In this document: in pieces, positions 1 to 12,639 of the stretch | How the letters are laid out: each line of letters opens with the position of its first letter | How positions within the stretch are numbered: the stretch's first letter is position 1 | Source: Pseudomonadota bacterium | GTDB taxonomy: Bacteria > Desulfobacterota > Binatia > Binatales > Binataceae | DNA length: 64,000 bases | Direction: 5' to 3' | NCBI GenBank assembly: GCA_021325355.1 | Contig: JAJPHI010000009.1 | Location: forward strand, 387,144 to 451,143 | Translations under genes and position numbers: made by a program | Notes under the pieces: model-generated | Database searches by the model: none | The model's input: the letters and a program-made list of their open reading frames with translations, nothing else | What the model was told of the DNA's origin: nothing

Positions 1-572
1 ATAGCCTGCTTCGCGCCCGCGACTTGCCGCCGCCGGCACCGGTTATGCGCCGGCTTCGCCGCACCTCCGGGTGACTCGCGACTGCCGCCGGCGCCGTTCC
101 GCGTCATTTTTGCGCTCTCATCGACGAGACCGGCGGAACGTCACCGCCCGCAGCCGCGCCGCAAATCTCGTCCGCCGCTTTCGGCTGAAAGCGCTCAGCT
201 CTCGCCCGCAAGATTCGCGGGAATTCGGCCAATCCGCCGCTCGCGGTCATAGACCGTGCGCCAACTGAACGGCGACTTGCCGTTGCATCGCTCACACAGC
301 CCGACGCTCGACGCCATCATATTGGCGACTGCATAGAGCATCCCGCAGCCGACGCATCGCTGCTGCACCCGCGCGTTGGGTTTCGGGCGTCTCACCGGGA
401 GCGATCCTTCCGGCCTTCGCATGGTTGGCTGACGGTAATTGCGCTCGATTACCCGCCTATCACGCGACTGTGATGCTGGCGTTAAGGCCTTCTTGGCCGA
501 TGCTGCTTCAGTTTTGCTTACTGAAATATTTCACCCTTATGCCTTCGGCGAATTTCTGAAAAATCGTCGGGC

Positions 573-1010
573 ATGTTGAACCATGCCCAATTTGCGTGGA
601 GTGCTCGCAGAAAACTCCTCTTCACTCTTGCTGTAGCAGTCTTCGCTCCGCCAGCGGTTTATGCCGGCAATGCGATTAATCAGGCAACCACCGGCCAACC
701 CGGCACGGCCGTGGTGATTTCGAACACCGCGCCGACGGAGCTGCTGGCGGCAAACCGCGCGCGCTACGGCTGGACGATTTACTGTGCCGGCACCGCCGGT
801 GGTATCGCGGCGATGGTGATGCCGGGCGATTCGGCCGGCGACCCGGCAAGCCCCGCCCCATCCCAGACCGTCGGTTTTCCGGTTCCCGCCAATGTCCTGA
901 TGACCGACCAGGATTTTCCGCTGCGCGGCCTTGACGCGATCCATCAACGTCTCGATGCGGAAGCGCAGGGGAGCGCACCGGTCAGTTGCTACACCTGGGA
1001 GGAGCAATAA
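573..1010 (+). CDS. Small secreted hypothetical protein (N-terminal hydrophobic signal-like segment), first gene of a tightly packed plus-strand operon
   Basis: ORF begins just after a local AT-rich stretch (about 480-570). The N-terminus 'RKLLFTLAVAVFAPPAVYAG' resembles a signal peptide. It ends 3 nt before the next gene. No recognisable family. Confidence 0.4.
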   Translation: MLNHAQFAWSARRKLLFTLAVAVFAPPAVYAGNAINQATTGQPGTAVVISNTAPTELLAANRARYGWTIYCAGTAGGIAAMVMPGDSAGDPASPAPSQTVGFPVPANVLMTDQDFPLRGLDAIHQRLDAEAQGSAPVSCYTWEEQ

Positions 1011-1013
1011 GCG

Positions 1014-2702
1014 ATGCTGGTCCGACGAAATCCACTGCTCCGCCGCGCCAGCGCTTGCCCCGCCCCGCCCTATCGCCCGCTGGCGAGCTTTCTTCTGCCC
1101 GCGCTCCTCGTCGCGATTTTCGGCGTTCCGTCGGCAATGGCGGCCCCGTGGGGCAACGGCGCCGGCGGCGGTGGCGGCGGCGCCTCCGGCAAGGTCAACT
1201 CGGGAGCTTCGGGCCAGCTCGGCTACTACTCGGGCAGCGGCACGACGATTTCCGGAACGACGATCGGCGGCGACTGTACTTTCGCGGCACCCAGCACCTT
1301 CACCTGCACCAAAACCAACGGCGTAAGCTTCGCCCCGTCGGCCACGATCAATACGACCAACGCGTCGAATATCAGTGCCGGCACGCTCAGCGCCGCACGC
1401 CTTCCGGCACTTGGCGGCGATACCACATCCGTAGCCGGCTCCGCGGTCACCACCACCCAGCAGGTGCATCTTCATACCCGCGCGATTACCGGAACAGGCA
1501 CCGCGGATACGGCTTCGTGCAGCACCGATCAGGTAATCACGATCAATTCGACCGGCGGCAACTTTATCGAGAATCTGCCCGCCACCACCGGGCTGCCGCC
1601 GAACTGTTCCTTCCTGATTATCAACCTGATGACTTCCGCCAACGTCACGATCACGCCGAATGCCGCAAACGGCGACAAACTTAACGGCGCTTCAAGCTAT
1701 GTTTTGGCGCCGCCCAATCGCGCCACCTGGATACAGTTCGTCGCTCCCAACAGTTGGTCAATCATCGCCGATACTCCGGCCGGCGGCGGCGATGTTGCCG
1801 GTTCGAATCAGAGCTGGCTCGTCACCGGTCTGAACGGCGTGCCGATGCAGGGGGCGCTGGCCAAAGCCAACGCGGTCTGGTGCTACGACGGCTCGGCCCA
1901 CATGGTCGAGTGCGATCTCGCCCAGTATCCCCAAGTCGTCCTCAACAACGATCCGACTACCGGCACCACCCTGAACACGCTGACCAAGATTCAGTCCGGT
2001 AATGCAATTATCGCGGCGACCACGGATTCAGCCGGGATGGTCGGGATTACCGTCGCGGGCGCCGGCAAGAGCGGCGCCGCCACTATCCAACTGACTGGTC
2101 TGGCGACCTGCGTCTTCGATAATTCCACCACGGCGGGCGATTTTGTCGGGATCAGCGCCAGCGTCCCGGGGGATTGTCACGACGCGGGCGCCAACGCCGG
2201 CGCGCTGCTCCAGTCGCAGAAAATCGGCAAGGTTCTCGCCACCAATTCTGGACCGGGCGCGTATCAAATCATGCTCTATCCGGTCGGCGAAAACGTTCGG
2301 ACTCAGGTCGATTATGGGTCTCAGGGCGCGAGCGCGGCGCCGACCACCAGCGGCGGCTCGGCTTACTTCAATCTCCAGGGCCCGCTCTCCAGCGCCACCG
2401 AGGCCAACGTCAACAACGGTCCGGTGCCGGCCAATCACGTCTTCAGCAATCTGTGTTGCGTCTCGACGGTCGCTTCCGGCAGCGCCGTCAATTGGTCCGT
2501 CGTTCTGCGGGCGAACGGCACCGTTCCGTCGGGCGAGCCCAACGTCACCCTGAGCAACACCACGGCGCCGGTGTGCGACACCATCGATACCTACACCAGC
2601 TCGGCCGCCGGCACTGATCTGCTCGACCTGAAGATCACCTGTAACGGCGGTACCTGCGCCTCCGGCAGTCTGGTCCGCTGCTCCACGCTCGAAACCTACT
2701 GA
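1014..2702 (+). CDS. Large secreted Gly/Ser/Thr/Asn-rich protein, possible beta-structured adhesin or tail-fibre-like protein
   Basis: Sec-type signal (basic N-terminus, hydrophobic core, 'AMA|AP'). Poly-Gly tract 'GNGAGGGGGGASG'. Highly T/S/G/N-rich with many Cys. Motif 'NISAGTLSAARLP' is reminiscent of phage tail-fibre proteins. No enzymatic motifs. Confidence 0.6.
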   Translation: MLVRRNPLLRRASACPAPPYRPLASFLLPALLVAIFGVPSAMAAPWGNGAGGGGGGASGKVNSGASGQLGYYSGSGTTISGTTIGGDCTFAAPSTFTCTKTNGVSFAPSATINTTNASNISAGTLSAARLPALGGDTTSVAGSAVTTTQQVHLHTRAITGTGTADTASCSTDQVITINSTGGNFIENLPATTGLPPNCSFLIINLMTSANVTITPNAANGDKLNGASSYVLAPPNRATWIQFVAPNSWSIIADTPAGGGDVAGSNQSWLVTGLNGVPMQGALAKANAVWCYDGSAHMVECDLAQYPQVVLNNDPTTGTTLNTLTKIQSGNAIIAATTDSAGMVGITVAGAGKSGAATIQLTGLATCVFDNSTTAGDFVGISASVPGDCHDAGANAGALLQSQKIGKVLATNSGPGAYQIMLYPVGENVRTQVDYGSQGASAAPTTSGGSAYFNLQGPLSSATEANVNNGPVPANHVFSNLCCVSTVASGSAVNWSVVLRANGTVPSGEPNVTLSNTTAPVCDTIDTYTSSAAGTDLLDLKITCNGGTCASGSLVRCSTLETY

Positions 2703-2742
2703 GCAGTTCGCGGCCGCGACTGCGTCCAAGGATACCCGACCA

Positions 2743-4092
2743 ATGGAACTCTCCGGATTCCGCTGCGCCGACCCGCGACTCAGCTCCGCGCACCGCGCGC
2801 GGCCACGTCATTCGAAGTTCGCCCTGCGATGGCTCCGACGCGGACTGCTGACCGCGCTGCTCGTCGTCGCCGTGGTTCTGCCGCTTCGCGCCGCCTCAGG
2901 ACCGCTCACCTCGGCCCAGGGATGGGTGGCGGCGCTGATCGATTCGCCTGCCGCCTTTTACACCCCAAATCCCGCCTTCACTCCCGGCTTCGAGATGGGG
3001 CTGTACCAGGGCACGAATGTGCTGGCCACCGCTTCCGCGCCGCACGACGCCAAACTTAAAAGCGCCGCTGCGGCGGTCGTCCCCTTATGTCAGAACGGCA
3101 ACCCGCCGAGCGGCTCCTGCGCCGAGGGCGGAGCCGGCAAAATCGGCGTCGCCCATATCGGCTTCTCGGTTTCGATCCAACAGACCTGCACCGGACCGAA
3201 CCATGCCAACGGTCTGGTCGCGCCGACTCCCTCAGCCTGCGCGACCGGCACCGCCGACTATACGCTCTACCAGGATCAGCAGGGCGCGACGCCCACCATC
3301 GCGCCGACGGTCTACTTTGCCGATTGTGCGCAGCCCTCGGCCACGATGGATAAATGGGCGGCGCAGATAGGTATCAACTCTCAAACCACCGCTCCCTATT
3401 GGTACAACTGCGTAAATACCGTTCTGCCCAACGAGGGGCTGGTCGCCAACCAGATTGAGGCGGTCACGATCGAAGCTGCCGCCGGTTCACCGTCCGCGGG
3501 CTTTTCCTCGATGTCCTCGTTGTCCCATACGCCGTGCCAGGCCGGTGACGAGGCCACCGTCGCTGCCTGCTATGGGGAACAACAGACCGGCATCGTCCTG
3601 CGCGAGCTTTTTCAGCAGTGGCCGCATCTGAAGATCGCCTACCTGTATTCGCGCGCCTACGGCGGATGCGCGGCGGCGGGCACGCTCAATCCCGAACCCT
3701 ATGCCTACGAAGACGGCTTTACCGTCCAGTTCCTGATTCAGGCGCAGATTCGCCAGGCCGACAACAACGGTCCGCAAGACAGCGAGGCCGGCAATCTTGC
3801 CTACAGCGTCGTTCCGGCACTCTCGTGGGGCGGCTATCAATGGGCCAACGGCACGACGCCCAACAGTGAAGGCCTGTCGTGGCCCTGCACTGACTTCACC
3901 ACGACTGACCAGACGCATTTCGTCAACGGCGGTTACCAGAACTCGGCAAATACCATGATCAATTTCTTTCTCGGCACGAGCGTCACCGGCGCCAACCATC
4001 AGGCGTACACCGGATGGATCCGCCCGAATGGCGCGACGCCCGCTCCCACCGCCTCCTCCACTCCCACCATGCTCTTCTCGTTTCACCGCTAA
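2743..4092 (+). CDS. Secreted Cys-rich hypothetical protein
   Basis: Hydrophobic signal-like segment 'LLTALLVVAVVLPLRAASGP'. 449 aa with many Cys, Trp and Tyr, and no recognisable catalytic motif. Start codon uncertain. Confidence 0.5.
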   Translation: MELSGFRCADPRLSSAHRARPRHSKFALRWLRRGLLTALLVVAVVLPLRAASGPLTSAQGWVAALIDSPAAFYTPNPAFTPGFEMGLYQGTNVLATASAPHDAKLKSAAAAVVPLCQNGNPPSGSCAEGGAGKIGVAHIGFSVSIQQTCTGPNHANGLVAPTPSACATGTADYTLYQDQQGATPTIAPTVYFADCAQPSATMDKWAAQIGINSQTTAPYWYNCVNTVLPNEGLVANQIEAVTIEAAAGSPSAGFSSMSSLSHTPCQAGDEATVAACYGEQQTGIVLRELFQQWPHLKIAYLYSRAYGGCAAAGTLNPEPYAYEDGFTVQFLIQAQIRQADNNGPQDSEAGNLAYSVVPALSWGGYQWANGTTPNSEGLSWPCTDFTTTDQTHFVNGGYQNSANTMINFFLGTSVTGANHQAYTGWIRPNGATPAPTASSTPTMLFSFHR

Positions 4093-4096
4093 GCCG

Positions 4097-4900
4097 ATGA
4101 AAATCAGCGCTGTCATAGTCTCAGTCGATTACGGCGATATCCTCGTCTGGACCCTGCGGGAAAATCGTCACGTCTTCGACCGGCTCGTCGTCGTCACCAG
4201 CCCGCGCGATTTCCGTACCCGTCGCGTCTGCGAGCACTTCCATATCCGGTGCGAAGTCACCAGTGCCTTTTATGCGGGCGCATCGGGGGTGGATCTGCTC
4301 GCCTTCAACAAGGCGGCCGGCATCAACCACGGCCTGCGTCAGTTGATGCAGGAGCGCCCCCCGGACCGCGACGATTGGTACGTCCATCTCGACGCCGATA
4401 TCGTCCTGCCGCCGCGCACTCGCGAACTGCTGCACAAGGTCGATCCCGACCCCGCGTGTATCTACGGCATCGACCGCATGATGTGCACGTCGTTCGATGA
4501 CTATCTGCGTTATGCGGCGCTGCCGGCGCCGCAGCATCAGAACCAGATCTTCGTCCGCGCCGACGCCTTTCCGCTCGGCGTGCGCGTGGCGCGGCTTGAT
4601 CCCGACGGCAGCGGCTATGTCCCGATCGGTTTCTTCCAGATGTGGAACCCGGTCGGCTCGGGCGTGACTGACTATCCGCAATATCACCAGTCAGCCGCCC
4701 GCTCGGACATGCTGTTTGCACTCCGATGGCCCCGGCGCCGCCGACACCTCATCCCCGAGATTGTCGCGACCCATCTCGAGTCCGAAGTCTCGCCGATGGG
4801 CCAGAACTGGAACGGCCGCCGCAGTTGTTCTTTCGGTCCGCCGCCCGCGTCCTCGATTCTCGAACCAAATCCGCAACCTTATGAATGTGAGAGGCAATAA
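4097..4900 (+). CDS. GT-A fold glycosyltransferase-like protein (family-2-like)
   Basis: Internal ATG giving N-terminus 'MKISAVIVSVDYGD', typical of the GT2 N-terminal strand. DXD-like 'HLDADIV' motif. The ORF track 5' extension (from 4028) is Pro-rich and probably untranslated. Confidence 0.5.
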   Translation: MKISAVIVSVDYGDILVWTLRENRHVFDRLVVVTSPRDFRTRRVCEHFHIRCEVTSAFYAGASGVDLLAFNKAAGINHGLRQLMQERPPDRDDWYVHLDADIVLPPRTRELLHKVDPDPACIYGIDRMMCTSFDDYLRYAALPAPQHQNQIFVRADAFPLGVRVARLDPDGSGYVPIGFFQMWNPVGSGVTDYPQYHQSAARSDMLFALRWPRRRRHLIPEIVATHLESEVSPMGQNWNGRRSCSFGPPPASSILEPNPQPYECERQ

Positions 4901-4903
4901 AGC

Positions 4904-5680
4904 ATGATTGCAGGAAAACTCGGCAAACGTCCCGCCCGTCGCGACTTCCGCACGCTGCGTATCAGCAACTATCTGCGCCGTCTGCCCCCGCCGCGTCCCG
5001 ATGGCGTCGACTGGGGTGCGGCCGTGCGCAAGGATCACCTCGCGCTCGGGATGCTCGGCAACGACCAGTACGGCGATTGCTTCTGGGCGATGGCCGCGCA
5101 TGCCTTCATCACCTGGAACGCCAACGCCGGTCGCAAGGTTGAATTCACCACCGATGCGGTACTCAATGCGTACTGCGCCTACCTCGGTATCCCGCGCAGC
5201 CAGCTCAATGATCAGACCGACAACGGCACCGTGATGCTCGACGGGCTCAAGTTCCTGCGCACCACCGGACTCGTTGACGCCTCCGGCAAGGTGCACAAAA
5301 TCGGCGCCTTCGCCGCCGTCGATGCCAAAAACGAGACGGAGGTCAGGGTCGCGCTCGATCTCTTCGGCGAGCTGCTCATCGGCGTCGAATTCCCCGGAGC
5401 GTGGATGAACACCAACGTCTGGGACGTCACCTCGGACGCTGTCGCAGGCGGGCATGCGATCAACGGCATTGCCCGCGACCTCAAGGGTGCGCCGGCGGTC
5501 GGTATCAATATCGATACCTGGGGCGCGGACAACTATTGGCTCACCTGGCCGGCCCTCGCGCAGTTCTGTGACGAGCTTTACGTCACCGTGCCGACGGACT
5601 GGATCGAGGACAACGGTCGCGCGCCGAGCGGACTCGATCTGAAGGCGCTGCTCGCGGACCTTGCCGCGGTCACCGCCTGA
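4904..5680 (+). CDS. Papain-like (C1-like) cysteine peptidase, cytoplasmic (no signal peptide)
   Basis: 'QYGDCFWAMAAHA' resembles the Q...C-x-W-A catalytic Cys region of papain. 'GGHAINGIA' is a candidate catalytic His. 'NIDTWGADNYW' resembles the papain N-S-W-G oxyanion/Asn region. Starts 4 nt after the previous stop. Confidence 0.55.
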   Translation: MIAGKLGKRPARRDFRTLRISNYLRRLPPPRPDGVDWGAAVRKDHLALGMLGNDQYGDCFWAMAAHAFITWNANAGRKVEFTTDAVLNAYCAYLGIPRSQLNDQTDNGTVMLDGLKFLRTTGLVDASGKVHKIGAFAAVDAKNETEVRVALDLFGELLIGVEFPGAWMNTNVWDVTSDAVAGGHAINGIARDLKGAPAVGINIDTWGADNYWLTWPALAQFCDELYVTVPTDWIEDNGRAPSGLDLKALLADLAAVTA

Positions 5681-5688
5681 CTCGGCAT

Positions 5689-5892
5689 ATGAAAGCACTT
5701 GCTTCGCTGTTGAGTGACCTCAAGACCAGTTGCGCCGGTATCGCCCTCATCGCGATCACCGTGCTCTTTCTCACCGGCCGTCTCGGGGTCAATCAGTATC
5801 TCGCCGCGGTGGGCGCGCTCGCCGGCGGCGGCCTCGTGATGGCGAAAGATGCTTCGCCGGTAACGCCGGAGCAGAAGAAGGAACTGAAATGA
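5689..5892 (+). CDS. Small single-pass membrane protein (holin-like or i-spanin-like topology)
   Basis: 67 aa with one strongly hydrophobic segment 'GIALIAITVLFLTG' and a charged C-terminus 'PEQKKELK'. Its stop overlaps the next start (ATGA at 5889-5892). Confidence 0.5.
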   Translation: MKALASLLSDLKTSCAGIALIAITVLFLTGRLGVNQYLAAVGALAGGGLVMAKDASPVTPEQKKELK

Positions 5893-6281
5893 ATACAGCT
5901 CTTGCCAAATTGACTATCGCGTCGCTGCTCTGCCTGACGCTGCTGTCGCTCGGATGCGCCACCCAAAACGCCGGCATCACCTGGCCCATCAGCATCGGTG
6001 GTCAGCAAATCCTGGTTAACTCCGCGCCGGTCCTGACCATGCAGGCCGAGCAATCCTGCAACGCCCAGGCGCAGGTCGAGTACAATCTGAACGTCGCCGC
6101 CTGCGAGGGCAAGCTCGCCCCGCTCTTCCCGGTGCAGTTCGCCGGCGTCAACGCGCAGGCGCAGGTTCTCTGCCAGGCCTTCGGCTACACCAACTCGAGC
6201 GGCCAGCTTGCCGTGCCCGAGACCATCCAGTTGGGCGGATGCGCCACCGCGGCCAGCACGGTCAAACGCCGCACGTCCTAA
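5889..6281 (+). CDS. Lipoprotein (signal peptide with lipobox 'LSLGC')
   Basis: Internal ATG at 5889 gives 'MNTALAKLTIASLLCLTLLSLGCATQNAG', a classic lipoprotein signal plus Cys. Gln/Ala-rich mature part with paired Cys. Translationally coupled to the upstream small TM gene. Confidence 0.55.
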   Translation: MNTALAKLTIASLLCLTLLSLGCATQNAGITWPISIGGQQILVNSAPVLTMQAEQSCNAQAQVEYNLNVAACEGKLAPLFPVQFAGVNAQAQVLCQAFGYTNSSGQLAVPETIQLGGCATAASTVKRRTS

Positions 6282-6320: not shown

Positions 6321-8195
6321 TCACGCCGGAGCAGCCGCGAACTGATCGTTGCCTTCACCGCGCAGGATCGCATCGAAACGCAGCCCGCCGAGATACTGGC
6401 GGCGCGCCTCTTCGTCGGTGATCACGCTCCGGCGCACGTCGCGGCGGCGGATCTGCCACACTCCCCCGACCATCGGATGGCGCCCCTGGCGATAGCTGAA
6501 GAAGTAATACGACCATTGCCGCCACAGCGCGCGGCGCGCTTCGGCCGAAAGGCCCCGACCGCTCGCGACCGACAGGATCATGCTCAGCAGCCGGCCCAGT
6601 GAATAGAAGCCGGTGAAAGCGTCGCGGTACGCCTGATACCAGGTGTAGGTATCCATCTTCTCGTGCCGCAGCGTCACATGCTGCGAGTCCAGATTATTGA
6701 AGTCCCAGTCGATTATCTGGCCCTCTTTCGCGTATCGCACCTGATCTTCGGTGCCGGGCAGCGGCGTCATGATAAAAAACGACACCATGTCGAAGCCGAT
6801 CTTGCGCAGCATCTGCGCCGCGACCCGCCCGCAGTCCGGACCGTCAAACGGGAATCCCAGCATATAGCCGGCATGCACTGACACGCCCACCCGATGCCAG
6901 TTTTCGACGACTCGGCGGTACTTGTGCAGCACCCGCCGCTTGGCATCTTCGAGGCTCATCCGATGCTGCCGGTCTTCGGTGTTCTGATATTTCGTGGCGT
7001 GATTCAGATTGTCCGGATTGAGCGACTCGATACCGACGAACGCCTGGTAACAGCCCGCCCGCGCCGCGAGCTCCGTAAAGCGCCGGCTTCGGCGATGCTT
7101 GGCCGTCTCGGTTTCGCCCGGTTCCAGGTTCGCGAAGCACGACGCATCGACGTCCACCTGCATCATGAACGAGAAGCGCGGAAACTCCTTGCGTACTTCA
7201 ATCAGTCCCGTGAGAATTTCTTCCCATCGCGGACTGCGGAAAAAATCGTCGTCCACCAAAAACAGCGACTCGATCCCATGATGGCGCGCGGCGTCGCGCA
7301 CCCAGTTGACCACCGCCCCCGGTTCGCGCGATCGCATCGTGCGCCCCATCACATTCTTCACGCTGCAGTAAGAGCAGGTGAACGGACAGCCGCGCGACGT
7401 ATCCAGCGTGGTCATCGTCGTCGTGAAGAACCGCGACAGATAGCGATCATCGATCGTCGGTAACTGCGCGTCGGTTATCACCGGCACGATGATGTCGTCC
7501 TGGCCGGTCTTGGCGCGAATCCCATCGACCACCGCGTAGTTCAGTTTGAGTTCACCGCGCAGAAAATCCTCGATCAGCTCGGCCCAGATCGTTTCGGCCT
7601 CACCGACGATGGTCGTGATACCGCAACTGTTCAGGAATTCGCGCGACTGCGGATAACCGCTGACGTGAAATCCGCCCATCATGGTCGGGATCTGCTTCGC
7701 CACGAACTGCAGCGCCAAATCACGACCGCGCGCATATTGGTTCGACTGCACTCCCGCCAGTCCCACCAATAATTCCACCCCGTCCTCGATCGCTTTTTCT
7801 TTGATCGCGACGATCGTCTCCGGCGTCACCACGCCGTCGCACAACTCGTCCCAGATGACCGTCTCGAGCACCACGTTGCGCTCGGCGCCGCGTTGCTGAT
7901 TGAGCGTATCGTTAAGCGCCTTCAGCACCGTCAGCGTGTTATTCGGCTGCACGCCGTAGCGAAAGAATTGAACATAGCCCTCTTCGTCGTAACGCGAGGG
8001 CTTGATGAAATACACGCGGACCGTCCGGCACGGTTCGGCCCGCAGCGCATCGCTGCCCGCCGCCGATGCCGGCCCCGTCAATTGCAACGGTCGCTTGCTG
8101 TCGCGATGGGTATAACGTTCGTGACCGATCATGAACCAGAGCAGAGTTCCGCAACCGATCAGAACCAGGCTCAGGATAGTAAACGCCAGAATCAT
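6321..8195 (-). CDS. B12-binding domain radical SAM protein (class B) with N-terminal transmembrane anchor
   Basis: CxxxCxxC 'RGCPFTCSYCS' radical-SAM motif preceded by a cobalamin-binding-like N-domain. The first about 22 aa, 'MILAFTILSLVLIGCGTLLWFMI', are hydrophobic. Confidence 0.8.
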   Translation of the reverse strand: MILAFTILSLVLIGCGTLLWFMIGHERYTHRDSKRPLQLTGPASAAGSDALRAEPCRTVRVYFIKPSRYDEEGYVQFFRYGVQPNNTLTVLKALNDTLNQQRGAERNVVLETVIWDELCDGVVTPETIVAIKEKAIEDGVELLVGLAGVQSNQYARGRDLALQFVAKQIPTMMGGFHVSGYPQSREFLNSCGITTIVGEAETIWAELIEDFLRGELKLNYAVVDGIRAKTGQDDIIVPVITDAQLPTIDDRYLSRFFTTTMTTLDTSRGCPFTCSYCSVKNVMGRTMRSREPGAVVNWVRDAARHHGIESLFLVDDDFFRSPRWEEILTGLIEVRKEFPRFSFMMQVDVDASCFANLEPGETETAKHRRSRRFTELAARAGCYQAFVGIESLNPDNLNHATKYQNTEDRQHRMSLEDAKRRVLHKYRRVVENWHRVGVSVHAGYMLGFPFDGPDCGRVAAQMLRKIGFDMVSFFIMTPLPGTEDQVRYAKEGQIIDWDFNNLDSQHVTLRHEKMDTYTWYQAYRDAFTGFYSLGRLLSMILSVASGRGLSAEARRALWRQWSYYFFSYRQGRHPMVGGVWQIRRRDVRRSVITDEEARRQYLGGLRFDAILRGEGNDQFAAAPA

Positions 8196-8307
8196 GAATC
8201 TTCCTTTTGCTGCTCGGGCCTTCGAAGCCTCGCAATATCTCTAACCGAACGGTCAGAAAAAATTAAGGGCCCCCTGTGTAATAAATCGTCGGCGCATGAA
8301 TTGCCGA

Positions 8308-10683
8308 TTAACGATACATCTCGATAAGCGAAATCAGGCCCAGGTCGCGATATCGCTCTATGAGATATCCTTTGATGTCCTTTACGCTTGAGAGTTGCGA
8401 TACATCGTGCGCGATATGCCGCGCCGTCTGATAGCTCGACTCCTGAACCAATTTTCGGACCACCGGAATGAACAGCGGACTCAAGCTCAGTTGATCGAGT
8501 CCCATCCCCACCAGCAGCAGCGTCGCCAGCGGATCGCTGGCCATCTCCCCGCACAGACAGACTTCCTTGCCGGCGCCCCGCGCCACGTTGACCACTTCCG
8601 CAATCGCCGACAACACCGCCGGATGGAGCGGCTCGTAAAGATGCGCCACCTTGGGATTATTGCGATCGGCCGCGAGCAGATACTGCACCAGGTCGTTGGT
8701 GCCGATCGAAAAGAAATCCACCTCGCGGATAAGCCGCGGCGCCAGCCAGACCGCCGACGGCACCTCGACCATGATTCCCACCTCGATCGCCGGATTGTGC
8801 TCGAGCCCCTCCTTGAACAACTCGGCCTGGGCTTCGAGCAGAAGTTCGCGCGCGCGATGCAGTTCCTCGAGACTCGAAATCATCGGAAACAACACGCGCA
8901 CCTTGCGATGGGCCGCGGCGCGCAGGATGGCGCGCAACTGCACCTTGAAGATCCCCGCCAATTCCAGTGAGATCCGAATCGATCGCCAGCCGAGAAACGG
9001 ATTCTCCTCACGCGGCACGCGCAGATATGGCGGATACTTGTCCGCCCCGATATCCAGCGTGCGAATCGTCACCGTTCGCTCCCCTACCGCCTCGAGCATC
9101 CGCGTGTACAGCTCGATCTGCTGGTTTTCGTCGGGGAAATCCTCGTACGTCAGAAAGGAAAATTCCGAGCGCAGGAGCCCGATACCTTCCGCTCCGTAGC
9201 GCAGGGCCAGCCGCACGTCCGGCAGCAGCGCGATATTGGCCAGCATCTGTACCCGATGGCCGTCGCGGGTCTCCGCCGGCGCCTGCAACCCCGCCATCAG
9301 TTCGCGGCGGAAGGCCTCGTAGCGCTTGTGCTGCAACTGATACTCGCGCTCGACCTCCGCTGACGGATTGATGTAGAGCACCCCGGAGTTGCCGTCGAGC
9401 TCGAGCGCATCGCCTTCCGAAACCGCCTCCATCAGCCGCTCGACACCCACGATCGTCGGCAGTTCGAAGGCGCGCGCCAGAATCGCCGCGTGCGAGGTCA
9501 CGCCGCCCGACTGCAGCGCAATCCCCGCCAGATTCTCATGCGACACCAGCGCCATCTGCGACAGCGTCAGCTCCTCCGCCACCAGGATGGTCTTGCGGCT
9601 GAACGATCCGATACCCTCTTCCTGGCGCAGATGGCGCAAAACGCGATGGCCGACGTCGCGGAAATCCGTGGCGCGTTCGCGCAAATAGGCGTCGGCCACG
9701 GCCAGCATCTGGGCGCTCAGTTCGTCGATTACCCGGAACAGCGAACTCTCCGCCGCATATCCCTCCGCGATCGTATCGCGCACCCGCGAGATAAACTCCT
9801 CGTCCTCGAGGATCAGCCGATGCGCGTCGAAGATCTGCAGGTCGTTCTCGGCCATCAACGGCGCCATCCGCGCTTTCAACGCCGCCAGTTCACCGCGCGA
9901 GCGCACCAGCGCCTCTTCGAACCGTTTAAGCTCGACCTTCGGATCCCGCGCCCGCAGATTGCGATCAATCGTGCTCAGGAACGTGCCGACAACGTGCGCG
10001 ACCCCGTGAGCGAAGCCCGGCGCCGCCGGCAACCCGACCAGCCGCGGATGGCGCATCTTGATTGGCGGCGCGACCCGCGTCGCCCCCGCCACCCGCTCGT
10101 AACCCTTGAGCTGACGGTTCGCCTCGATCATCCGCCGCCGATACTCGTCGCGCTCCTTCTCCTTGGTGGCCAGCGTCTCGCGCAGTTGAAACTGCGACAT
10201 GATCGCCGCCAACTGCGCCGCCGCCGTCCGCAACAGGCGGATCGCCACCGTGCCGAACTTGCGTCGCCGCAGCGTCTGCACCGTCAGCACGCCAAGCGGT
10301 TTCTGCCGCGTCTCGGCGATCGGCACCGCGAGCAGCGTGTGATAGCGCTCCTCGCCGGTTTCCGGGAAATACTTGTACCGCGGATGGCTCATCGCGTCTT
10401 CGACGACCACCGGCTCGCCCCGCTCGATCACCAGACCCACCAGACCTTCGTTGACGCGGATCGACACGCGGCCGACCGATTCGCGATTGAGGCCCACCGT
10501 CGCGCGCAGCACCAGCCGTTCGCGCTGCGGATCGAACAGGTAGATCGAACAAACCTCGACCTCCATGCGGGCAGCGATCGTGGTGACGACGCGGTCGAGA
10601 GTCTGACGCAGGTCGGCCGAAGGATCGCCGCTAATCGCCGAAATGTCCTCGATCAGCGCGAGGCGGTCTCGATTGGCGGCCAT
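8308..10683 (-). CDS. ptsP: Phosphoenolpyruvate-protein phosphotransferase with N-terminal GAF domain (EI-Ntr type)
   Basis: N-terminal GAF-like region and PEP-utilising-enzyme motifs, including active-site His region 'GGVTSHAAILARAFELPTIVGV'. Length 791 aa fits PtsP. Confidence 0.85.
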   Translation of the reverse strand: MAANRDRLALIEDISAISGDPSADLRQTLDRVVTTIAARMEVEVCSIYLFDPQRERLVLRATVGLNRESVGRVSIRVNEGLVGLVIERGEPVVVEDAMSHPRYKYFPETGEERYHTLLAVPIAETRQKPLGVLTVQTLRRRKFGTVAIRLLRTAAAQLAAIMSQFQLRETLATKEKERDEYRRRMIEANRQLKGYERVAGATRVAPPIKMRHPRLVGLPAAPGFAHGVAHVVGTFLSTIDRNLRARDPKVELKRFEEALVRSRGELAALKARMAPLMAENDLQIFDAHRLILEDEEFISRVRDTIAEGYAAESSLFRVIDELSAQMLAVADAYLRERATDFRDVGHRVLRHLRQEEGIGSFSRKTILVAEELTLSQMALVSHENLAGIALQSGGVTSHAAILARAFELPTIVGVERLMEAVSEGDALELDGNSGVLYINPSAEVEREYQLQHKRYEAFRRELMAGLQAPAETRDGHRVQMLANIALLPDVRLALRYGAEGIGLLRSEFSFLTYEDFPDENQQIELYTRMLEAVGERTVTIRTLDIGADKYPPYLRVPREENPFLGWRSIRISLELAGIFKVQLRAILRAAAHRKVRVLFPMISSLEELHRARELLLEAQAELFKEGLEHNPAIEVGIMVEVPSAVWLAPRLIREVDFFSIGTNDLVQYLLAADRNNPKVAHLYEPLHPAVLSAIAEVVNVARGAGKEVCLCGEMASDPLATLLLVGMGLDQLSLSPLFIPVVRKLVQESSYQTARHIAHDVSQLSSVKDIKGYLIERYRDLGLISLIEMYR

Positions 10684-10886
10684 GGTCTGCTTGGGTTCAG
10701 GTGATTCTATCCAGCGCCCCTTGATGGCACAACCTAAGGCGATCCGGCGCCGCGCCGCAAGCGCCGATCACCCCATGCCGCCACTTGCCCGACTCAGCGC
10801 CAGCGCGACCGCGCCGCTTACCCCGGCTTCGGCACCCCGATGACGCCAGCCAGGGTCGCCGCGCGCTACGGCGCGGAGCCGCCGAC

Positions 10887-11771
10887 TCAGCCGTCGAGGA
10901 AAATGCGCTCGAGATGCGACGTCAGCCGCGAGACGGCGCCGGCCACCGCGATCAAGCGACCGCCGGCGACCACCTTGAAGCGCGCCGCCGGCACCGCGAT
11001 ACCGTCCAGCGCGCGCGCATCGCCATGCCGCAAGCGCGCCGCCACGCCCTGGTCCACCTCCACCTCCGGCAGCGCCGACAGCGCCTCGCGCAGCGGGATT
11101 AGCGGCGCGGGCGCGCCGCCTTCAAGCACCTGCAGCACCCGCTCCAGCGGCGCCGCCGCATCGAGCGTAAAGCTGCCATTGCGCTCGCGCCGCAACTCCG
11201 CCAGATGCGCCACGGTGCCGAGCGCGAGACCGAGATCCCGCGCGAGCGCCCGCACGTACATCCCGGGTCCGCAGCTCACTCGAAAACGCAGCGATCGCCC
11301 GTCGGCCACGGCCAGCTCGAGCTGATTGATCCGCACCGTGCGCGGCGGATGCGGCGGCGCCTCGATCCCGCGCCGCGCGAGGCGATAGGAACGCACGCCG
11401 TCGCGCTTGATCGCCGAAAATGCCGGCGGCGTCTGCTCAATCGAACCGGTGAAGCGGCGCGCCGCCGCCGCCAGCAGTTCCGCGTCGATCCCGGGCACCG
11501 GCGCCTCGCGCGTCACCGCGCCGGTCGGATCGAGCGTGTCCGTCTCCGCCCCCAGCGCGATTAACCCGCTGTAGAGTTTTTCGCCTTCCTGCAGGAAAGG
11601 GGCGAGCTTCGTGCCCTCGCCCACGAGGATCGGCAGCACCCCCGTCGCGAACGGATCGAGCGTCCCCAGATGCCCGACCTTGGACCGCGACCCGAGACGT
11701 TTCCGAATCTTCCGCACCACCTCGGCCGAGCTCACGCCCGCGGGCTTGTCCACCACGATAACGCCGTCCAT
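10887..11771 (-). CDS. truB: tRNA pseudouridine(55) synthase
   Basis: 'GVIVVDKPAGVSSAEVVRKIRK...GHLGTLDPFATGVLPILVG' is the catalytic Asp motif region of TruB. Located downstream of rbfA as in the canonical operon. Confidence 0.9.
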   Translation of the reverse strand: MDGVIVVDKPAGVSSAEVVRKIRKRLGSRSKVGHLGTLDPFATGVLPILVGEGTKLAPFLQEGEKLYSGLIALGAETDTLDPTGAVTREAPVPGIDAELLAAAARRFTGSIEQTPPAFSAIKRDGVRSYRLARRGIEAPPHPPRTVRINQLELAVADGRSLRFRVSCGPGMYVRALARDLGLALGTVAHLAELRRERNGSFTLDAAAPLERVLQVLEGGAPAPLIPLREALSALPEVEVDQGVAARLRHGDARALDGIAVPAARFKVVAGGRLIAVAGAVSRLTSHLERIFLDG

Positions 11772-11824
11772 TGCGGCCTCGACTCCGCTCCTGCGAGGTC
11801 TGCTGCGGGTTTGCGTGACCGGCG

Positions 11825-12190
11825 TCAGCCCGCCCCGGTCTTGGTCCGGCTCTCGCGCAACAGCCGCTCGACCCGCGCCGCGCTTTCCGGTCCCGGATCA
11901 AACTCGAAGATGAAGTCCGGCGTGTAGCGCAGCGCGAGCGCGTGCCCAATCTCACGGCGGATAAACCCGCTCGCGCTCTGAAAGCCCTTGATCGCTTCGC
12001 CAGCCTGCGCGCGCCCCTCGAGATGGGAAAAAAAGACCCGCCCGTGCCGCAGGTCGTCGCTCATCCGCACCCGCGTCAGCGAGACGCCGCGCAGACGCGG
12101 GTCGCGCAGGTCATGCACCAGCATCTCGGACAGTTCGCGTAAAACCATCTCCGCCACCCGTTCGGGCCGCCTGCCATCACCCTCAGCCAT
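11825..12190 (-). CDS. rbfA: Ribosome-binding factor A
   Basis: Sequence 'RVAEMVLRELSEMLVHDLRDPRLRGVSLTRVRMSDDLRHGRVFFS' matches the RbfA KH-like fold. Position between infB and truB. Confidence 0.9.
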   Translation of the reverse strand: MAEGDGRRPERVAEMVLRELSEMLVHDLRDPRLRGVSLTRVRMSDDLRHGRVFFSHLEGRAQAGEAIKGFQSASGFIRREIGHALALRYTPDFIFEFDPGPESAARVERLLRESRTKTGAG

Positions 12191-12296
12191 GATTTTGATT
12201 TTAACCGCCGCTAATCTCAGAGCCCAAGCGCCGCCAATTGCTTACGGGGCGAACGCGCAACGCGTCGTCAGGGCTCCCGACGCCGCTCCGCCGCGT

Positions 12297-12584
12297 CTAG
12301 TAATTGACGATCTCGAGCACCTCTTCGCCGAGCGGCGCGAGCCCCAATCCTTCGATAAAGCGCACCACCTCGCGCAGCGCGGCATCGACGAAATCGCGAT
12401 CGGTGCCGGCCTGGCAGATGCCCAGTTCGGCCCGCTGCCACATCTCGTGGCCCGCCGACTCGACGATCGAGACATTGAATTTGTTCCGCACCCGATCCTT
12501 GATCGCGCGCAGCACCTGGCGTTTGCCCTTCAGCGAATGGTTCTCCGGCAGAAAAAGCGTCAGCCGCAACACCCCGACGACCAT
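12297..12584 (-). CDS. DUF503 family protein (YlxP-like)
   Basis: 95-aa protein 'MVVGVLRLTLFLPENHSLKGKRQ' between infB and rbfA, the typical position of the DUF503 gene. Confidence 0.8.
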   Translation of the reverse strand: MVVGVLRLTLFLPENHSLKGKRQVLRAIKDRVRNKFNVSIVESAGHEMWQRAELGICQAGTDRDFVDAALREVVRFIEGLGLAPLGEEVLEIVNY

Positions 12585-12639
12585 CGGCCTGTCTCGTCTC
12601 GCACCGAGCGGGAAATCGCCGAATGCCTGCGCCGCCGCC

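Follow-up and report, generated by a model that had tools for sequence, protein, structure and literature searches.

The seven co-directional genes w1 to w7 (positions 573–6281, plus strand) in the chromosome of an uncultured Candidatus Binataceae bacterium form a 5.7-kb island. This island is a domesticated fragment of the late region of a temperate phage. It was fixed once beside a radical-SAM/PtsP gene pair, in the common ancestor of a small Candidatus Binataceae clade, and purifying selection has acted on it through vertical inheritance since. It joins three Sec-type exported proteins (w1–w3) to a four-gene phage module (w4–w7) and probably functions in protein export or cell-surface remodeling. 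As to mechanism, we tentatively favor a type-10-secretion-like module that would release Sec-exported cargo.

Table 1 Features of the island and its upstream region
Feature	Position	Strand	Length	Description
w0	195..422	-		Candidate small zinc-ribbon ORF (CxxC...CxxC), divergent from the operon
Motif ACTGAAATATTTCACCCTTATG	520..541	+	22 nt	Conserved; 31 nt before w1 in the AT-rich patch
w1	573..1010	+	145 aa (~114 aa mature)	Small exported protein, 2 Cys, no assigned family
w2	1014..2702	+	562 aa	Exported fiber-like protein, signal peptide, poly-Gly tract
w3	2743..4092	+	449 aa	Exported Cys-rich protein of a large uncharacterized secreted family
w4	4097..4900	+	267 aa	Cytoplasmic GT-A-fold glycosyltransferase, DxD = D99-A-D101
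w5	4904..5680	+	258 aa	Cytoplasmic cathepsin/papain-like cysteine peptidase, catalytic Cys59/His184
w6	5689..5892	+	67 aa	Small membrane protein, holin-like size and topology, charged C-terminal tail
w7	5889..6281	+	130 aa	Lipoprotein; starts at the ATG of the ATGA overlapping the w6 stop

The genes are tightly packed, with gaps of 3, 40, 4, 3, and 8 nt from w1 to w6 and a 4-nt overlap (ATGA) between w6 and w7. The ORF list and an independent gene caller run on the public contigs, which returned the identical seven genes, reproduce exactly the ORFs, gaps, and terminal overlap of a preliminary description of this DNA. The w4 start is placed at the ATG giving the 4-nt gap; an extended ORF that begins at 4028 overlaps w3. 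Searches of Pfam, as that description had proposed, and of NCBIfam and PADLOC matched none of the seven proteins. Signal peptides were judged solely by a crude hydrophobicity test of the N-termini, by which w1, w2, w3, and w7 appear exported and w4 and w5 do not; across the homolog families, w2 and w3 mostly have signal-peptide-like N-termini under the same test, and the w4 and w5 families lack them. The protein classes proposed in the preliminary description hold for w1 (exported), w2 (exported and Gly/Ser/Thr/Asn-rich, at 40.7% G+S+T+N), w3 (exported and Cys-rich, with 11 Cys), and w7 (a lipoprotein with the lipobox LSLGC), and structure prediction and Foldseek confirm the GT-A-like glycosyltransferase fold of w4 and the papain-like cysteine peptidase fold of w5. 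The single-TM label for w6 fits its one strong hydrophobic segment (~10–35) but omits a weaker, Gly/Ala-rich segment at 37–52.

Housekeeping genes surround the island. The 5 kb upstream encode Lnt, a SpoU methylase, LssY_C, DUF1285, and a CDP-alcohol phosphatidyltransferase, and the 9 kb downstream encode the radical-SAM protein (rSAM), PtsP, TruB, RbfA, and IF-2; no integrase, capsid, or tail genes flank the island. The 64-kb window (the whole stretch of DNA analyzed) holds no further copies of w1–w7 and no tRNA genes, and there are no flanking repeats around the island. Tailocin clusters usually end with a tail-fiber-like gene and then lysis-type genes, and on that count the block could belong to an active prophage, tailocin, or phage-tail-like bacteriocin with genes beyond it. 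Given these surroundings and a w2 N-terminus that is a signal peptide instead of a baseplate-attachment region, this explanation has almost no probability left; an active prophage or tailocin at the locus is refuted by the housekeeping-only flanks.

The same chromosomal site is occupied in three lineages, represented by the window, L092, and L175/L180, whose flank proteins are ~88% identical (rSAM and PtsP of L092 and L175/L180 are 87–91% identical to those of the window). The island is missing from 80 other Binataceae species, in which rSAM is ≤80% identical; 51 of the loci in this survey reach at least 6 kb beyond rSAM. All seven genes are intact in L092, at 61–80% amino acid identity, and six of the seven are intact in L175/L180, where w5 is cleanly deleted and w6 and w7 remain. 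Signal peptides, the lipobox, catalytic residues, and the C-terminal FSFHR of w3 are kept in all copies, and the tight spacing and overlaps are preserved. In the comparison with the second lineage, synonymous sites are saturated and dN/dS is 0.04–0.17 across the island genes; their proteins nonetheless evolve 2–4 times faster than those of the flanking genes (dN 0.13–0.36 versus 0.06–0.08). GC content is 0.637 in the island versus 0.652 in the window, and GC3 is 0.68–0.85 versus 0.77–0.81 in flanking genes. This ameliorated GC, the site shared by three diverged lineages, and the saturated dS bear out the earlier proposal that the block, if foreign, is old. Its description as a degenerate phage module is off in one respect, as the genes are under purifying selection and not decaying. 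A functionless, slowly decaying prophage remnant would explain why no phage genes flank the island, most of the phage being gone, and why w5 was lost in one lineage. Seven (or six) intact ORFs at such low dN/dS despite saturated synonymous sites, together with the conserved spacing and sequence features, leave this explanation very improbable and close to refuted.

The w4–w7 module has counterparts in phages. A Binataceae Mu-like prophage carries contiguous homologs of w4, w5, and w6 (75%, 75%, and 42% identical), that of w6 being a 58-aa protein encoded directly after the w5 homolog, and a w7-like lipoprotein gene lies two genes upstream of the three. All of these homologs fall between Mor and gp27/terminase, which is where Mu keeps its lysis genes; the w7 homolog, a weaker match than the one in contig L009 described below (pairwise E 0.001, with the Cys pattern conserved), opens this slot, which also holds a second lipoprotein and DUF2730, a TM-plus-coiled-coil protein. 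The w6 orthologs in L092 and L175 are intact, and w6 matches no holin family. Mature w7 comprises 107 aa, with Ala at +2 of the lipobox and four conserved Cys forming two probable disulfides. It is 34% identical to a lipoprotein whose gene overlaps the start of a w5 homolog in a second phage (contig L009), where the w7-like/w5-like pair adjoins small membrane proteins and lies 2.4 kb from a Hydrolase_2 endolysin.

The peptidase w5 belongs to PHROG 19005 (E 1.3e-24). Its AF2 model (pLDDT 92.8) has a papain-like fold that matches xylellain in Foldseek (3ois, E 1.5e-10), as does a profile search of the PDB (E 1.5e-5), and C59 and H184 are invariant in the family. The two-lobed fold, the Cys-His dyad, and an N-terminal stretch resembling a pro-region recall xylellain and family C1 (papain/cathepsin), and a Gluconobacter relative carries the NCBI name “C1 family peptidase”. 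In contrast to family C1, to which identity is 12–18% with no Pfam Peptidase_C1 match, the w5 family is phage-borne, lysis-associated, and cytoplasmic, not secreted or lysosomal. Relatives of w5 adjoin an amidase, are overlapped by a GH25 muramidase, or lie near Hydrolase_2; small TM proteins occur within ±3 genes of w5 homologs more often than expected on 54 viral contigs (15% versus 6.9%, p = 7e-4). The co-occurrence of glycosyltransferase, peptidase, and lipoprotein, offered earlier as a check, is found in the Mu-like prophage, which has w4–w7 together; at the 54 further viral w5 loci, w4, w6, and w7 are missing from the vicinity (0/54).

Among the exported proteins, w1 is 69–76% identical to its orthologs in L092 and L175, with a cleavage-type motif (AxA|GNAIN) conserved in the three orthologs and a dN/dS of 0.17. 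In w2 (15 Cys; dN/dS 0.075), residues ~312–420 form a ~100-aa domain common to proteins in phage tail-fiber positions, and residues 61–423 are 52% identical to a 738-aa lipoprotein in the tail module of a Mu-like prophage. There, a four-gene insert of exported proteins that includes the w2 homolog lies between GpD and baseplate V. Two siphovirus tail modules also have w2 relatives, encoded downstream of the host-specificity gene. Some relatives match tail-fiber PHROGs, and 35 of 47 have signal-peptide-like N-termini (crude test); w2 is a fiber akin to tail-fiber or receptor-binding proteins of phages. The w3 family, with 1,528 representative clusters at E ≤1e-3, is large and includes fusions with Big, Laminin_G, and T9SS sorting domains; it has no Pfam or PDB link by sequence and no match among GenBank phages. 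In addition to a Pro/Thr linker and the FSFHR terminus, w3 has a G-x-S motif whose S142 is invariant, and D389/H392, nearly invariant, fall within the family consensus DGTHPS; these motifs mark it as a putative SGNH/SASA-like esterase. Its orthologs are 80% identical (dN/dS 0.04). Of the two readings in the preliminary description, a domesticated phage tail-fiber plus lysis cassette is therefore well supported as to origin by the tail-fiber-position kin of w2, the Mu-like slot of w4–w7, and the endolysins beside w5 relatives.

A type 10 secretion system (T10SS) has as its core a holin and a wall hydrolase without a signal peptide; both stem from phage lysis and share an operon with the cargo (PMC13284979). 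Some cargo first reaches the periplasm via Sec, and spanins are optional (PMC13284979, PMC4259817, PMC10847048). The island resembles Serratia ChiWXYZ, Salmonella ChiH/ChiP and TtsA, and the Yersinia entomophaga lysis cassette in being chromosomal and derived from a phage lysis cassette, and in combining, within a single operon, exported proteins with a signal-less hydrolase and an adjacent small holin-like membrane protein. It likewise recalls the lysis cassettes of phages of diderm hosts (lambda S-R-Rz-Rz1, the Mu lys region) through the Mor-to-gp27 position of the w4–w7 homologs and the amidase, GH25, and Hydrolase_2 endolysins that adjoin w5 relatives. By analogy, w1–w3 would pass the inner membrane via Sec and undergo disulfide folding in the periplasm, and w5 would gain the periplasm through w6, where it could cleave peptide links in the wall or in wall-to-outer-membrane tethers. 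Lipoprotein w7, of the outer-membrane type, would work at the outer membrane, so that the bulky fiber and the enzyme reach the surface or medium without full lysis, and w4 may glycosylate an envelope glycan precursor or the cargo on the cytoplasmic side.

Several observations count against this T10SS-like reading. No island component matches known holin, endolysin, or spanin families, and w5 has a cathepsin-like cysteine peptidase fold, in contrast to the muramidases, amidases, and L-Ala-D-Glu endopeptidases of known T10SS and to the papain-like wall hydrolase families NlpC/P60 and CHAP. Because at least three phages pair a w5 relative with a canonical endolysin, w5 may be some other type of accessory factor. 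Its loss in one lineage with w6 and w7 intact, if not recent, fits poorly with a hydrolase that is essential. Compared with a canonical lysis cassette (holin, endolysin, i-/o-spanin), the island has no recognized wall-hydrolase domain and no i-spanin, and w7, given its mature size and probable disulfides, is unlike an o-spanin and much larger than Rz1. The candidate cargo is itself phage-derived (tail-fiber-like), unlike that of known T10SS. The module also includes a GT-A enzyme to which the T10SS-like reading gives no necessary role; to our knowledge, a glycosyltransferase in a lysis cassette is unprecedented.

The glycosyltransferase is central to a close rival, possible though less probable, in which the island serves lysogenic conversion or superinfection exclusion by remodeling and masking a glycan receptor at the surface. 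Here w4 would add a sugar to an envelope glycopolymer precursor and SGNH-like w3 would alter its acetylation, w2 (with w1) would bind and occlude the glycan that serves related phages as receptor, and w7 would block an outer-membrane receptor, the cassette being kept as protection against the phage family of origin. Consistent with this, the w4 family acts as a movable accessory gene in many phage contexts. Exported proteins sometimes follow it (L023, L028, L045, L063, L067), although this enrichment is marginal (14% versus 8.3%, p = 0.05), and in L045 it occupies the same tail-module slot as a small-lipoprotein/large-protein pair beside the w2 homolog in L093. Proteins of the w2 family are exported even from tail modules, which is not compatible with cytoplasmic virion assembly. 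Phages are known to encode exported moron proteins in tail and lysis regions (lambda lom and bor, T5 llp). These, like cor, resemble the four-gene insert with the w2 homolog in that signal-peptide or lipoprotein genes are embedded in tail or lysis modules, but the proteins of the insert have a much greater size and one shares homology with tail-fiber domains. The faster evolution of the island proteins is as an arms race would predict, and loss of w5 is tolerated. Masking leaves the peptidase and the holin-like protein without a role, however, and depends on an esterase call for w3 made from motifs. In addition, the island lacks the GtrA- or GtrC-type membrane partners of Shigella/Salmonella gtrABC and any PADLOC match, and in the Mu-like prophage the w4 and w7 homologs sit in a late, lysis-type slot, not beside a lysogeny promoter. 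Among the prophage-encoded envelope glycosyltransferases that serve lysogenic conversion, S. aureus TarP shares only 15% sequence identity with w4.

The first reading of the preliminary description, in which a glycosylated surface fiber or adhesin has its own maturation system, appears unlikely. In such a system, w4 would glycosylate the Ser/Thr/Asn-rich w2 before export, w5 would process it, and w7 and w6 would anchor or assemble it on the envelope. The composition and export of w2 fit this scheme, as does the GT-A fold of w4 with its DxD, for which the peptide S-glycosyltransferases SunS and ThuS are among the structural matches; phage contig L064 has translationally coupled glycosyltransferase and peptidase genes, located downstream of the gene for a Thr/Ser-rich protein with a signal peptide. 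Conservation of the w4 family, ~50% identical among phages with unrelated neighbors (thymidylate synthase, terminase, portal, homing endonucleases), however, argues for a common, non-fiber substrate, and nothing ties the glycosyltransferase to w2 as its substrate. Furthermore, w5 stays in the cytoplasm whereas mature w2 leaves it, one lineage dispenses with w5, and the further viral w5 loci have no other module genes nearby.

Upstream of w1, the preliminary description had noted an AT-rich, promoter-like patch (~480–570). The patch is AT-rich (GC 0.45) but contains no sigma-70 consensus; 20 of the 22 nt of ACTGAAATATTTCACCCTTATG within it are identical at the matching place in L092, making this motif a candidate promoter or operator. 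The divergent ORF w0 is absent from the gene caller's output on the public contig and matches no Pfam family; its C-terminal 50 aa show 66% identity in L092, the second island copy, where the DNA under positions 207–275 is 83% identical. It is a possible regulator of the operon, and w0 and the conserved motif could provide the tight control that a T10SS-like module would need.

The seven tightly packed plus-strand genes of the preliminary description, w1–w7, were recovered with the same spacing (gaps of 3, 40, 4, 3 and 8 nt, then an ATGA overlap), and an independent gene caller predicts the same genes on public contigs carrying the window sequence, whose exact matches fall in metagenome-assembled genomes of Candidatus Binataceae. 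A simple hydrophobicity test finds signal-peptide-like N-termini on w1, w2, w3 and w7, the four proteins proposed to be exported, and none on w4 or w5. The small protein w7 also carries the lipobox LSLGC of the lipoprotein it was taken to be, and w6 is a 67-aa membrane protein encoded directly 3′ of w5. None of the seven matches a family in Pfam, NCBIfam or PADLOC, housekeeping families included; the scans returned chance-level entries only (e.g., YsaB for w7, E 0.045). In PHROGs, w5 is the sole island protein with a match. As described earlier, the island (GC 0.637) resembles the surrounding genes in GC, and it does so in GC3 as well. The patch at 480–570 is indeed AT-rich (GC 0.45); no sigma-70 consensus was found upstream of w1.

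The small divergent ORF w0 has no usable match in Pfam or PADLOC. The last 50 aa of w0 share 66% identity with their counterpart in L092, the second island-bearing lineage, which also keeps a 22-nt motif at 520–541. Judged from sequence conservation, w0 and the motif may belong to the same unit as the island, and w0 may be a candidate regulator of it. A hairpin at 567–590 with a 9-bp stem (GGGCATG...CATGCCC) overlaps the w1 start codon at 573 and is followed by a T-run on the minus strand; it could occlude translation initiation of w1 or terminate transcription running leftward.

Features of the island and of the related phage-borne loci (positions of w0–w7 are those of the window; those of the insert refer to contig L093)
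Feature	Position	Strand	Description or basis
w0	195-422	-	CxxC...CxxC zinc-ribbon ORF, divergent from operon; uncalled by gene caller
w1	573-1010	+	ORF and independent gene caller
w2	1014-2702	+	ORF and independent gene caller
w3	2743-4092	+	ORF and independent gene caller
w4	4097-4900	+	ORF and independent gene caller
w5	4904-5680	+	ORF and independent gene caller
w6	5689-5892	+	ORF and independent gene caller
w7	5889-6281	+	ORF and independent gene caller
L093 insert	9588-14822		138-aa lipoprotein, 738-aa lipoprotein (w2 homologue), 461-aa protein, 396-aa signal-peptide protein
Mu-like prophage Mor-gp27 slot, gene 1			w7-like lipoprotein; pairwise E 0.001, same four-Cys pattern
Mu-like prophage slot, gene 2			second lipoprotein
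Mu-like prophage slot, gene 3			w4 homologue, 75% identical
Mu-like prophage slot, gene 4			w5 homologue, 75% identical
Mu-like prophage slot, gene 5			w6 homologue, 42% identical
Mu-like prophage slot, gene 6			DUF2730 protein; N-terminal TM segment and coiled coil

The 5.7-kb island is set among housekeeping genes. The 5 kb upstream encode Lnt, a SpoU methylase, LssY_C, DUF1285 and a CDP-alcohol phosphatidyltransferase, and the 9 kb downstream encode a B12-type radical-SAM protein, PtsP, TruB, RbfA, DUF503 and IF-2. A prophage or tailocin cluster is ruled out by these flanks, by the absence of integrase, terminase, capsid, sheath/tube, baseplate and tail genes from the island and the flanking 5 kb and 9 kb, by the absence of tRNA genes from the 64-kb window, and by the lack of direct or inverted repeats (possible att sites) flanking the island.

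All seven genes are present in L092, where they encode proteins 61–80% identical to those of the window and directly adjoin the same radical-SAM–PtsP pair. A third lineage, represented by two independent assemblies (L175 and L180, mutually 99.7% identical), has w1, w2, w3, w4, w6 and w7 beside this pair, with about 80 bp left in place of w5. The two flanking proteins are 87–91% identical among the three lineages. No island genes were found in 80 other Binataceae species, in which the pair is present and the radical-SAM protein is 73–80% identical; 51 of these loci reach at least 6 kb beyond the radical-SAM gene. The far side of the island varies by lineage (CDP-alcohol phosphatidyltransferase versus CbiQ), and as neither gene adjoins the radical-SAM gene in island-less species, no exact empty site is definable.

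In the comparison of the window with L092, synonymous sites have reached saturation (dS >1.2, or not computable), while dN ranges from 0.13 to 0.36 in the island and from 0.06 to 0.08 in the flanks. Where computable, dN/dS is 0.04–0.17; for w4, w6 and w7 the ratio is undefined owing to saturated dS. Signal peptides, the lipobox, the catalytic residues and the C-terminal FSFHR of w3 are kept in all island copies. The intact reading frames, low dN/dS and saturated dS effectively exclude a slowly decaying remnant. Most simply, the block inserted once in the ancestor of a small clade and was then passed on vertically for a long time under purifying selection, with w5 lost once at a later stage.

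Homologues of w4–w7 are carried by a Binataceae Mu-like prophage whose locus-tag prefix, shared with the window, suggests that both belong to one MAG; they lie between Mor and gp27/terminase, the region that holds the lysis genes in Mu. On its contig (L006, 227–16449) this prophage appears truncated, with a portal gene and two small genes followed by host genes and no capsid or tail genes on the contig. A second phage, L009, has overlapping homologues of w7 (34% identical) and w5 (54% identical), the former running into the start of the latter; two small membrane proteins come just before, and a Hydrolase_2 endolysin is 2.4 kb away. In the viral contig L064 the glycosyltransferase and peptidase genes are translationally coupled. 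At 54 further viral w5 loci w4, w6 and w7 are absent, so the four-gene combination is specific to the branch nearest the island. The island copies of w4 and w5 are about as close to the prophage copies (75% identical) as to each other (71–75%), which argues that the block came from, or was exchanged with, that phage lineage. Homologues in the Mu-like lysis slot and w5 relatives beside endolysins together establish a phage lysis-cassette origin for w4–w7. The island is a domesticated phage late-region module assembled from four or five unannotated families.

The predicted structure of w5 displays a two-lobed papain/cathepsin-like fold (pLDDT 92.8). Xylellain is the best match both in Foldseek (E 1.5e-10, with procathepsins at about 1e-7) and in a profile search (E 1.5e-5). 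Across 41 relatives Cys59 and His184 do not vary, and His184 is followed by TWG, comparable to the SWG of papain. The protein matches no Pfam model, Peptidase_C1 included, its family (PHROG 19005) has no assigned function, and NlpC/P60, CHAP and amidase structures are absent from the 50 best Foldseek matches listed. A tblastn search against GenBank phages returned a single match. Relatives of w5 adjoin an N-acetylmuramoyl-L-alanine amidase gene at the end of a tail module; a GH25 muramidase gene overlaps one of them, the distance from another to a Hydrolase_2 gene is 0.8 kb, and in a Gluconobacter prophage the w5 relative closes the region of tail and small genes. A 159-aa protein of the same Gluconobacter prophage, lytic transglycosylase-like by eye, has no significant PDB match and is not used as evidence. 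In a viral-contig scan that used 12 closer sequences, small transmembrane proteins were enriched within three genes of the w5 homologue (15% versus 6.9%, Fisher p=7e-4, 54 further viral contigs). A lone w5-family gene also occurs on a 4.3-Mb bacterial contig (L179, 8001–8786) between GntR regulator and glucokinase genes, with no phage genes nearby, and is possibly another domestication of the peptidase alone.

The w4 protein is predicted to adopt a Rossmann-like GT-A fold (pLDDT 91), with a DxD motif (D99-A-D101) invariant in 48 relatives. Its best Foldseek match is AvpGT, a nucleoside glucosyltransferase (PMC11959488). At E<=0.1 it matches nothing in Pfam, including curated glycosyltransferase models such as Glycos_transf_2, and only a minority of its relatives carry PF00535 or PF12804. 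The family comprises >1,000 clusters and matches IMG/VR viral contigs in 278 stretches; tblastn against 50,697 GenBank phage genomes and comparison with PHROGs gave no match, and the family seems, by these searches, confined to uncultivated viruses. Its members are ~45–55% identical across the phage contigs retrieved, where they have diverse neighbors: thymidylate synthase, homing endonucleases, terminase, portal and a gp23-type major head protein. An exported protein follows the glycosyltransferase in 14% versus 8.3% of cases in viral contigs, a marginal difference (p=0.05).

The compositions reported earlier for w2 (41% Gly/Ser/Thr/Asn, with 15 Cys) and w3 (11 Cys) were reproduced. One of the two readings in the preliminary description, a glycosylated surface adhesin, is given a low probability here. 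Residues 61–423 of w2, and especially a ~100-aa module, are shared with proteins in phage tail-fiber positions. A Mu-like myovirus prophage from this bacterial family (L093) encodes a 738-aa homologue, one of four genes inserted between those for the GpD hub and the baseplate V spike; other relatives lie just downstream of the host-specificity protein in two siphovirus tail modules (L176 and L177), and several carry tail-fiber PHROG domains. Unexpectedly, 35 of 47 w2 relatives, phage-borne ones included, have a signal peptide or lipobox at the N-terminus. A virion fiber would attach to the virion by its N-terminus and assemble in the cytoplasm; w2 has a signal peptide and no virion genes nearby. 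In the myovirus L045, the tail-module slot that L093 uses for its lipoprotein/large-protein pair, next to the w2 homologue, holds a w4-type glycosyltransferase gene beside the gene of a small lipoprotein (44% identical). No similarity was detected between w1 and the 138-aa lipoprotein of the L093 insert or between w3 and its 461-aa protein, so the first three island genes cannot be equated with the insert, except for w2. By BLAST, w1 and w2 also lack similarity to the small exported and fiber-like proteins beside the glycosyltransferase in phages of the L023 type.

The w3 protein belongs to a very large secreted family (1,528 representative clusters) that lacks a Pfam model and, at the sequence level, any relative of solved structure. 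Fusions to Ig-like, Laminin_G or T9SS sorting domains are frequent among its members; tblastn against GenBank phages found no match. Ser142 is invariant within the motif G-(M/F)-S-(N/V), and Asp389 and His392 are invariant or nearly so (family consensus DGTHPS; D-Q-T-H in w3 itself). These residues resemble blocks I (G-x-S-x) and V (D-x-x-H) of SGNH/SASA enzymes, a match by motif only, and profiles of 23 and 87 relatives found no SGNH member in PDB/Pfam. From the motifs we infer that w3 is a putative SGNH/SASA-type esterase. In all three w3 orthologues, a Pro/Thr/Ser linker leads into a strictly conserved C-terminal FSFHR (window 4060–4092). The 461-aa insert protein of L093 (13590–13635), unrelated to w3 in sequence, ends in PTPTPT...VYSFHK, and no such ending occurs in 411 other fetched proteins. 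The FSFHR-type ending of w3 may be a C-terminal sorting or recognition tag.

The systems closest to the island are the type 10 secretion system (T10SS), holin–endolysin–spanin cassettes, prophage envelope glycosyltransferases (TarP, Gtr) and exported moron proteins of tail and lysis regions. The T10SS core consists of a holin and a signal-less wall hydrolase of phage-lysis origin, encoded together with their cargo (PMC13284979); some cargo is first exported by Sec, and spanins are optional (PMC13284979; see also PMC4259817, PMC10847048). The island resembles this arrangement in three signal-peptide-bearing candidate cargo proteins (w1–w3) within the same tightly spaced operon, and in the lysis-cassette origin of w4–w7. 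As a possible counterpart of the hydrolase and holin it has a peptidase without a signal peptide and, immediately downstream, the membrane protein w6, but w5 has a cathepsin-like fold and w6 matches no holin family. The island agrees with a T10SS in architecture but not clearly in its enzymes. It also departs from a holin–endolysin–spanin cassette, since it has no recognized lysin (no Pfam, NCBIfam or PHROG lysin family is matched) and its lipoprotein, w7, lacks a C-terminal transmembrane segment. A spanin-type partner with an N-terminal transmembrane segment and coiled coil is present in the Mu-like prophage (DUF2730) but not in the island. Nor does the island correspond to a Gtr O-antigen cluster (GtrA flippase, membrane-anchored GtrB and polytopic GtrC), as w4 has no transmembrane segment and the island no polytopic membrane protein.

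The results show the phage origin of the island, its long retention, the folds of w4 and w5 and, by heuristic, which proteins are exported and which cytoplasmic; how the island works is inferred from these. Because exported w1–w3, a signal-less hydrolase, the holin-like w6 and a lipoprotein match the architecture that defines a T10SS, we tentatively favor, at somewhat less than an even chance, a T10SS-like two-step release of w1–w3. The fiber w2, the enzyme w3 and w1 would be the released proteins, and w4 would have an envelope glycan precursor or the cargo as its substrate. Against this stand the fold of w5, which is no known wall-hydrolase fold, the classical endolysin that often accompanies w5 in phages, and the island lineage without w5, whose loss argues against a strict dependence of cargo secretion on the hydrolase. 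The model also gives the glycosyltransferase no necessary role.

The main rival, which we rate as rather unlikely, is a cassette of the lysogenic-conversion type that would alter a surface glycan receptor and mask it. Here the glycosyltransferase would add a sugar, the putative esterase would shift acetylation, the exported fiber would serve as a decoy and the lipoprotein as a blocker. Such a cassette would explain the exported tail fibers, the moron-like spread of the glycosyltransferase, the tolerated loss of w5 and the faster evolution of the island proteins, but it leaves w5 and w6 without a role. A joint reading, in our estimate unlikely, would combine a phage module with decoys. The GT-A enzyme, cathepsin-like peptidase, small two-segment membrane protein and disulfide-rich lipoprotein would form a new egress and envelope-attack module of phages infecting soil diderms. 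The peptidase, perhaps with the glycosyltransferase, would target peptides of the wall or its tethers to the outer membrane, either replacing a classical endolysin and spanin or working beside them. Members of the w2 family that bear signal peptides would serve as exported decoys of receptors and not as virion parts, and the island would be a domesticated mix of both.

To our knowledge, domesticated phage lysis cassettes of the T10SS type have so far been known from a handful of pathogens and with classical wall hydrolases. T10SS-like release by the island would add Binatota, an uncultured soil phylum, to the known carriers, with another set of enzymes. If w5 is lytic or cuts tethers, it would found a new class among phage lysis factors and might serve as an enzybiotic scaffold, and exported fibers acting as receptor decoys would be a new principle of superinfection exclusion. 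The origin of the island is now explained and is not exotic. Four unannotated families are common in environmental viruses: the GT-A enzyme, an endolysin-adjacent cathepsin-like peptidase, a disulfide-rich lipoprotein and exported tail-fiber-like proteins. Both the glycosyltransferase/peptidase/lipoprotein module of phage lysis slots and the exported tail-fiber homologues are widespread there and testable.

Two further observations concern the downstream flank. The radical-SAM protein (minus strand, within 6321–10683) is a B12-binding-type enzyme of 624 aa that adjoins PtsP (GAF and PEP-utilising domains); its best NCBIfam scores fall far under every family cutoff. The pair is kept in 80/80 Binataceae species sampled, which suggests a functional link. 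At 10751–11500, GC rises to 0.73–0.75 with a strong positive AT skew; transfer of coordinates from the public contig puts this stretch within the truB gene region.
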